DNA of 64,000 nucleotides, from contig JBDRCX010000006.1 of NCBI GenBank assembly GCA_043821365.1, forward strand, positions 32,001-96,000, given 5' to 3'. The notes beneath the pieces were generated by a model. It did not search any database. It was not told the DNA's origin and was given only the letters and a program-made list of their open reading frames with translations. How positions within the stretch are numbered: position 1 is the stretch's first letter; every line of letters starts with the position of its first letter. A program made the position numbers and the translations under genes. This document shows positions 3,310 through 3,840 of this stretch, piece after piece. Origin of the DNA: Candidatus Micrarchaeota archaeon (GTDB taxonomy: Archaea > Micrarchaeota > Micrarchaeia > Anstonellales > Bilamarchaeaceae).

Positions 3310-3443
3310 GCTTATATAGTTTATGTTAGTCAGTAAAATTCAGAACTTTTTAAAAAAAATGTTATAGTAAGTTTATTTTGTGTTTGAAAATTACCGAGGG
3401 GAAAACAATCATTTATAAGGACTTATTACGTAATGAAAAAGGG

Positions 3444-3626
3444 ATGACCATGACCGATGAAAAAATCTCTTTTCCAACAGTTTCTGTTAACGTTGATGTA
3501 CCACAAAATGCTCTTTCTGAAGCTCAAAAAATAAAAAAAGGGATATGTCCGTCGTGTGAAGGAAGTTTGGTTTTCCAAGAAGGATGTAAGGTTTGCTATT
3601 CTTGTGGCTGGGGAGGCTGCGAATGA
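3444..3626 (+). CDS. Small Zn-ribbon protein resembling the C-terminal Zn domain of class II ribonucleotide reductases
   Basis: CPSCEGSLVFQEGCKVCYSCGWGGC; ATG at 3444 or 3450. Confidence 0.7.
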   Translation: MTMTDEKISFPTVSVNVDVPQNALSEAQKIKKGICPSCEGSLVFQEGCKVCYSCGWGGCE

Positions 3627-3713: not shown

Positions 3714-3840
3714 GGGCTCGTAGCTCAGTCCGCCTTTTAGAAAAAGGCGGCCCAAAACTGGGTCGCTATATAGGTGGGAGAAACAGCAGAGCACTCGCCT
3801 TGCACGCGAGGGGCCGAGGGTGCGAGTCCCTCCGAGTCCA
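3714..3840 (+). tRNA. tRNA-Ala(TGC) with a ~54-nt D-loop insertion
   Basis: Acceptor GGGCTCG/CGAGTCC-A with G3:U70; D-stem GCTC/GAGC; anticodon arm CTCGC-CTTGCAC-GCGAG (anticodon 3801-3803); T-arm GAGGG-TGCGAGT-CCCTC; 59 nt (3729-3787) between G15 and A21. Confidence 0.9.

Follow-up and report, generated by a model that had tools for sequence, protein, structure and literature searches.

The D-loop of a Micrarchaeota tRNA-Ala(UGC) gene is very probably interrupted by a single 55-nucleotide relaxed bulge-helix-bulge (BHB) intron at tRNA position 15/16, located at 3729–3783 of the window (the whole 64,000-nucleotide stretch of DNA analysed here) and excised by an epsilon2-type endonuclease; we put the chance that this reading is correct at nearly nine in ten. 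The gene structure, the splice junction, the geometry of the motif, the presence of the enzymes and the family of hairpins to which part of the intron belongs are regarded as established, unlike cleavage and ligation in vivo, which, like the role of the hairpin, we infer. In the proposed pathway, the D-stem strand G10–C13 of the pre-tRNA would pair with an intronic GAGA to give a short central helix, and CCGCCU, the 5′ arm of the hairpin, would pair with a distal AGGUGG to give the inner helix. Together these helices would place A14-G15↓U16 and A69-A70↓C71 (arrows mark the cuts) in two 3-nt bulges on opposite strands. An epsilon2-type endonuclease would then cut both bulges and RtcB would join the exons, the ligation product being a 72-nt tRNA with the D-loop AGCAGCA.

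The interrupted gene and its exon junction

The tRNA-Ala(UGC) gene was identified by reading the sequence and occupies positions 3714–3840 on the plus strand. It begins GGGCTCG-TA-GCTC-AGT (3714–3729) and ends, at 3840, with AGAGC-A-CTCGC-CTTGCAC-GCGAG-GGGCC-GAGGG-TGCGAGT-CCCTC-CGAGTCC-A. The 5′ exon (3714–3728, plus strand) consists of acceptor strand 1–7, U8 A9, the D-stem strand G10–C13 and A14 G15, and is identical to the 5′ ends of uninterrupted orthologues. The 3′ exon (3784–3840, plus strand) supplies the D-loop residues CAGCA, the D-stem strand GAGC, the anticodon arm (UGC), the variable loop, the T arm, the acceptor strand and the discriminator A; its T-loop reads UGCGAGU and CCA is not encoded. 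An earlier note, made from the sequence alone, had described a D-loop insert containing a perfect hairpin followed by CCCAAAAC, with exactly 59 nt between G15 (3728) and the A preceding GAGC (3788), and had judged G3:U70 and all the other arms to be intact. Each of these features is present in the sequence as described, the intact parts being the acceptor stem, the anticodon arm (TGC) and the T stem. The G at position 55 of the T-loop is a feature absent from that note.

Neither ARAGORN with default settings nor Rfam at the gathering threshold called a tRNA in the whole window. The Rfam tRNA model matched the 3′ part of the gene alone, with 22 bits, and at E ≤ 1 the only Rfam result for the window was a tmRNA-like match of 12 bits to the acceptor and T arm, which is spurious. 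Deletion of positions 3729–3783 left a 72-nt sequence that ARAGORN called as tRNA-Ala(tgc). The conclusion that this is a real and probably essential gene stands: GCA is the main alanine codon, at 63.5% across 506 long ORFs, and the sole UGC anticodon arm in the assembly lies in this gene, so that the second, uninterrupted UGC copy considered in the earlier note was not found there, although the assembly, being 87% complete, may lack a further copy. The T-stem pair A50–U64, which is G50–C64 in most orthologues, is a compensatory difference and therefore points to continuing structural selection on the exons.

To place the exon junction we turned to relatives. The query was searched in 60 relatives and gave matches in 36 of 36 same-genus genomes, in which homology to the 3′ exon resumes at window position 3784/3785. 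In 15 orthologues the D-loop is uninterrupted; many of these sit 3′ of the same upstream gene (end ...GCKVCYSCGWGGC). They read GCUCAG↓CAGCAGAGC or GCUCAG↓UAGCAGAGC, exactly the predicted ligation product, and score 63–65 bits on the Rfam tRNA model RF00005. From the sequence, the spliced product is predicted to be ...GUAGCUCAG joined to CAGCAGAGCAC..., and the joined D-arm, GCUC-AGCAGCA-GAGC, is the one encoded by uninterrupted syntenic orthologues of the same genus. In a further five orthologues the loop is interrupted by unrelated introns, placed at 15/16, 17/18 or 18/19, and each of these resolves to AGCAGCA through its own BHB-like motif. A short ORF 5′ of the gene (3378–3626, plus strand), with a cysteine-rich tail ending ...FQEGCKVCYSCGWGGCE, is conserved and syntenic throughout the genus and served as the synteny anchor. 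Contigs of four metagenome DNA runs break at the intron repeat at this locus, none of them joining across the intron, and the X3 metagenome contigs contain the uninterrupted Ala gene of one relative as a loose end.

The D-loop and T-loop sequences of these tRNAs are unusual in their own right. Transfer RNA residues G18, G19 and U55 are near-universal. In tRNA-Ala(UGC) and Ala(CGC), and in Ala(GGC) of many relatives, the D-loop AG(Y)AGCA, with A at the G18 site, is combined with the T-loop UGCGAGU, with G at the U55 site (window 3784–3840; loci L006–L030 and L122–L151). Of the 98 genomes of the family, 59 contain the D-arm GCTCAGNAGCAGAGC, and a reversed control gave 0 matches; G55 was present in all 18 complete Ala tRNAs that have this D-arm. 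One Thr(UGU) has A18 but a normal UUCAAAU loop. Judged from these sequences, two residues of the tRNA elbow seem to have changed together, G18A with U55G.

Splicing motif and processing enzymes

All pairs of 5′ and 3′ cuts were scored for BHB geometry, which calls for a central helix of 4 bp, an inner helix and bulges of 3 nt that are each cut behind their second base. Just one solution was compatible with a tRNA, G15 (3728)/C71 of the precursor (3784), that is p = 15/q = 71; together with the ARAGORN call after removal and the homology and junctions of the orthologues, it delimits the intron at 3729–3783. The predicted motif combines a central helix GCUC/GAGA, paired at three of four positions, with a 6-bp inner helix and the bulges AG↓U and AA↓C; it has no outer helix (0 bp). 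Its central helix is formed by the D-stem strand G10 C11 U12 C13 (3723–3726) and GAGA (3778–3781), a 3′ strand also seen in paralogous introns, with three Watson–Crick pairs and a G·A. Bulge 1, A14 G15↓U16 (3727–3729), sets the 5′ splice site after 3728 and is unpaired in the minimum-free-energy fold. Bulge 2, A69 A70↓C71 in precursor numbering (3782–3784), sets the 3′ splice site after 3783, as do the orthologues. The inner helix pairs CCGCCU (3730–3735), which is also the 5′ arm of the local hairpin, with AGGUGG (3772–3777) at a pair probability of about 0.9 in the ensemble. All of these elements are on the plus strand. A register shifted by one nucleotide (16/70) obtained the same score in the scan, but its product, AGUACAGCA, occurs in no orthologue, and the orthologue D-loop alone ruled it out.

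Measured against a strict hBHBh′ motif, which demands four Watson–Crick central pairs and 2 bp or more of outer helix, the motif falls short, with three of four pairs and 0 bp. The missing outer helix makes it a relaxed BHB, and a strict alpha4 or alpha2 enzyme would reject a central helix of three Watson–Crick pairs plus G·A that lacks an outer helix. Three properties of a relaxed BHB intron are present: the cloverleaf is regained on removal, the two sites lie in opposite-strand 3-nt bulges with a helix of about 4 bp between them, and both RtcB and an endonuclease of a type that cuts relaxed motifs are encoded. The boundary GCUC/GAGA-AA↓ recurs in the Ala(CGC) intron of genome G021 and in a 21-nt Ala(GGC) mini-intron of genome G026. 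Because GAGA-AA↓ is common to paralogous Ala introns, the three-of-four central helix is a conserved feature, not decay.

The unconstrained minimum-free-energy fold of the precursor already contains the BHB motif. With the cloverleaf helices enforced, the BHB conformer had an energy of –51.7 kcal/mol, compared with –48.3 kcal/mol for a fold that retains the central helix but forms the local hairpin, and the ensemble pair probability was about 0.9 for the BHB inner helix and 0.08 for the local hairpin. The minimum-free-energy fold, in which the BHB inner helix is closed, contains an alternative 9-bp hairpin, GGCGGCCCA/UGGGUCGCU with loop AAAC (3746–3767, plus strand; pair probabilities 0.81–0.94). 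The BHB and local-hairpin conformers are only about 1–3 kcal/mol apart (energies at 37 °C), so on these folding models the local hairpin may form for a good part of the time. In the orthologous intron of genome G011, a compensatory change of C17–G64 to G–C is found in the inner helix. The first base of its arm is G, not C, and both partners of that base, the one in the local hairpin and the one in the BHB-closing helix, have changed alongside it; both folds therefore seem to be maintained.

The genome that carries this gene was assembled as 1.198 Mb in six contigs, with 36% GC, an archaeal SSU rRNA, an assignment to the Micrarchaeota (DPANN) and an estimated completeness of ~87%; DNA of the organism was found in groundwater and biofilm metagenomes. 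Without intron handling only 8 tRNA genes were detected in it, and a custom scan based on the T-arm and acceptor closure recovered ~36. Most of these are interrupted, often more than once, so interruption is the normal state in this genome. A 393-aa ORF encodes an EndA that matches the ARMAN-2 epsilon2 EndA (PDB 4FZ2) from end to end (E 3.5e-132), and its closest relatives, labelled Candidatus Micrarchaeota, Bilamarchaeum or Bilamarchaeaceae, show 77–91% identity. RtcB is encoded as well.

Two further observations concern these enzymes. RtcB is matched in two pieces, ~1.4 kb apart in one 910-aa open frame, and a hairpin of the same kind as that in the tRNA introns, TTTCTTTT-GAT-TAAAAAGAAA, lies immediately upstream of the first matched piece (G000:C6:673845-673865 and 673872-676544); the two-piece match suggests an intein or other insert. 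A second EndA-like ORF of 163 aa (G000:C6:480404-480895; L003:1291-1782, plus strand) contains a tRNA_int_endo catalytic domain (Pfam, E 3.4e-12), and its top PDB match is the M. jannaschii alpha4 enzyme (E 2.4e-9).

The earlier note considered the insert probably either spliced or tolerated in the tRNA. The BHB geometry, the orthologue junctions and the presence of the endonuclease support the former view, that the insert must be spliced. Nothing requires that it be tolerated unspliced, because the host has an endonuclease of the epsilon2 type, which is known to cut relaxed motifs (PMC3239211). That note had also offered a parse with two introns, cut at 16/17 and 18/19, that leaves the D-loop AGUGGCA with G18 G19. 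The parse recovers these near-universal residues, and CCCA/UGGG would form one 4-bp helix, but acceptable BHB geometry was found at neither cut. Moreover, the orthologues read GCUC-AG↓CAGCA-GAGC or AG↓UAGCA, as expected of one intron at 15/16. Those that are uninterrupted, 15 in all, have AGCAGCA or AGUAGCA and never AGUGGCA, and the GG at 3760–3761 falls in sequence conserved in no orthologue. The orthologue D-loops thus rule out this parse together with the 16/70 register, and we give the two-intron parse essentially no chance of being right.

Other readings would leave the insert in place or give it another function. The gene could be a decaying pseudogene, or the insert could be kept in the mature RNA, GCA then being decoded by an unassembled copy. 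The 87% completeness of the assembly, the relaxed BHB and the failure of standard finders to see the gene would all fit such a view. We nevertheless think it very improbable, since the exons are those of functional orthologues save for one compensatory T-stem pair, most tRNA genes of the genome are interrupted likewise as their normal state, the main alanine codon GCA has no other UGC arm to read it, and a matching endonuclease is present in the genome. It is at least as improbable that the intron encodes a functional small RNA, such as a box C/D guide, of which the hairpin would be part. The euryarchaeal tRNA-Trp intron bears a box C/D guide, UGAUGA-like strings follow the tail in some members of the hairpin family, and the sequence of the hairpin unit is kept across species. 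Positions 3729–3783, however, lack a C box (RUGAUGA) and a D box (CUGA) in the required arrangement, and Rfam is empty within the intron even at E ≤ 1. Group I and group II introns have a catalytic core, span hundreds of nucleotides and are detectable by Rfam models; a self-splicing intron of either group was rejected, the insert being only 55 nt long and giving no Rfam match in the intron at the gathering threshold or at E ≤ 1.

The hairpin-plus-tail module

Within the intron, the perfect hairpin CCGCCTTTT-AGA-AAAAGGCGG (3730–3750, plus strand) is followed by the tail CCCAAAAC (3751–3758, plus strand). Hairpin and tail together make up a module, CCGCCUUUU-AGA-AAAAGGCGG plus CCCAAAAC (3730–3758, plus strand), of which copies are found elsewhere. 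The earlier note took the hairpin to be a special element of the D-loop; this view finds no support, as copies of the module occupy a variety of positions across many of the genome's tRNA introns. The family extends across the genus, and its members share a plan: an outer stem that varies, a run of U paired with a run of A, a loop of 3 nt and, as the tail, YCAAAA(A)C. TTTT-N2-4-AAAA cores with 5/5 Watson–Crick flanks and a CAAAA tail number 34 genome-wide versus 0 in each of ten first-order Markov genomes, a comparison in which pairing was not presupposed and by which the pattern greatly exceeds what chance would give. The 34 cores use 23 different stems, all of them paired, which means that the stems covary. 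About 50 tailed copies are present in the genome: ~41 (roughly 80%) in or against tRNA genes, one in a 23S rRNA insert and ~10 in intergenic sequence without a nearby tRNA.

In tRNA-Arg(CCU) (C6:417904-418044) the intron consists of U, the hairpin, GAGU and AC, and forms a strict 4/4 BHB with the hairpin as inner helix. In the simplest members of the family, then, the hairpin itself is the BHB inner helix; in the Ala(UGC) intron it is one of two folds that compete for the 5′ arm, whose partners are a proximal GGCGG (local hairpin) and a distal GGUGG (BHB closure). Where an intron has two different bracketing hairpins, as in Gln(CUG) (C6:14158-14348), the long-range closing helix cannot form, and the model proposed here does not account for the way in which the splice sites are presented.

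The tRNA-Ala(CGC) gene ~22 kb away (window 26407 to 26148, minus strand, 260 nt) was correctly said in the earlier note to contain hairpins of the same architecture, with stems that differ yet are perfectly paired. Its D-loop insert of ~124 nt holds three modules, two forward and one reversed, and the gene also has a 37/38 intron. Scored by the same rules as one BHB intron, the ~124-nt insert gave no acceptable central helix; it may be spliced stepwise or through some other presentation of the sites. A module with its tail also occurs at G000:C4:16866-16887, within sequence that reads as 23S rRNA (...GGGAACTCGGCAAAATAGCCC...), which suggests a BHB-type intron of the hairpin family in large-subunit rRNA. 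Modules abut mature tRNA 5′ or 3′ ends, in leader or trailer, within 0–1 nt at G000:C6:734173-734195, at G000:C6:696872-696892 and at G000:C2:125998-126021, raising the question of whether the endonuclease is used in end processing.

How the module came to be in so many introns is a separate matter. It is 100% identical over 38–40 nt in the D-loop intron of a tRNA-Asn of the same genome (C6:684593-684632) and in a differently placed intron of a different tRNA in genome G030. Orthologous Ala(UGC) introns, on the other hand, are unrelated in sequence, and the presence and position of introns differ among close relatives. Identical modules across tRNAs combined with unrelated orthologous introns suggest spread by gene conversion between identical D-arms, or some form of mobility. 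One possibility, to which we assign distinctly less than even odds, is that the module is a small mobile element (MITE- or REP-like DNA, or reverse-spliced RNA) that spreads into tRNA introns because splicing removes whatever is inserted there; the Ala(UGC) intron would then be an older mini-intron, like the 21-nt one of G026, that gained such a module. This proposal is compatible with BHB splicing and competes with our reading only over the nature of the hairpin. The identical copies in different tRNAs and positions set against unrelated orthologous introns, the ~50 tailed copies with their ~10 intergenic members away from tRNAs, the existence of module-free mini-introns with the same boundaries and the variable presence and position of introns among close relatives all speak for it. 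Against it, neither a target-site duplication nor a linked transposase or homing endonuclease was seen at the locus, and the hairpin itself accounts for the only terminal inverted repeats; 23 covarying stems, all paired, point to selection on a folded strand rather than to simple copy-and-paste; the hairpin is a working part of the BHB in the simplest introns; and spread among tRNAs that share the D-arm GUAGCUCAG...AGAGC could equally have occurred by gene conversion.

More speculative again is the idea that the hairpin with its CAAAAC tail is an autonomous mobile unit, nearly confined to endonuclease-spliced introns and hidden by host tRNA splicing, which moves between tRNA genes and species and drives the very high intron load of Micrarchaeota tRNA genes; the two competing folds of the Ala(UGC) intron would then correspond to two lives, as mobile element and as splicing substrate. 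A separate observation is an ORF at G000:C6:553700-554000, between tRNA-Gln(UUG) and tRNA-Val, that carries a TnpB-like C-terminal zinc-finger/RuvC-type motif (...CNRCGSSVPKRLWERQHICPSCGLSMDRDLNAAINIL...).

Relation to known introns and significance

In Methanocaldococcus and Haloferax, among others, alpha4 or alpha2 endonucleases act on strict hBHBh′ introns at 37/38. The Ala(UGC) intron resembles these in that a short central helix lies between two 3-nt bulges, with the predicted cuts behind the second nucleotide of each. It differs in that its central helix has three Watson–Crick pairs plus G·A, there is no outer helix and the exon strand involved is that of the D-stem rather than the anticodon loop. 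Non-canonical and multiple BHB introns reportedly occur in the Thermoproteales, for which transposition of introns between tRNA genes is said to have been proposed. That system is similar in its related introns at different positions of different tRNAs, its many D-arm introns and its host endonuclease of broad specificity, but belongs to another phylum and has an (alpha-beta)2 enzyme instead of epsilon2.

The closest known system is that of Candidatus Micrarchaeum acidiphilum ARMAN-2, of the same phylum and with a full-length homologue of the endonuclease (Fujishima et al. 2011, PMC3239211; Hirata et al. 2012, PMC3488258; PDB 4FZ2). There, too, introns occur in most tRNA genes, at canonical as well as non-canonical sites, and the BHB motifs are relaxed: 56% of tRNA genes are disrupted (PMC3239211; see also PMC3488258 and PMC12397907), and in vitro the ARMAN-2 epsilon2 EndA cleaves relaxed BHB motifs as well as strict ones (PMC3239211). 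The ARMAN-2 examples illustrated in that paper lie at 37/38, 53/54 and 59/60, whereas the Ala(UGC) intron lies in the D-loop at 15/16. As a relaxed BHB intron whose site is non-canonical, the Ala(UGC) intron is thus of a known kind, and its lineage was known to possess introns of this sort. Searching the text of the 2011 (PMC3239211) and 2025 papers brought up no recurrent hairpin-plus-tail module.

With the intron recognised, an essential tRNA gene that had looked broken becomes an ordinary one, and the exact splice junction helps annotation, given that standard finders overlook tRNA-Ala(UGC) and most tRNA genes of the genome (8 of ~36 found without intron handling). The result also supplies natural relaxed substrates, with a G·A in the central helix and no outer helix, for the structurally characterised epsilon2 endonuclease. 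Within one genus, the same gene has no D-loop intron, a mini-intron or unrelated introns at three sites in the loop, a natural series for the gain, loss and shift of BHB introns, and the conserved hairpin module may be an agent of their spread.
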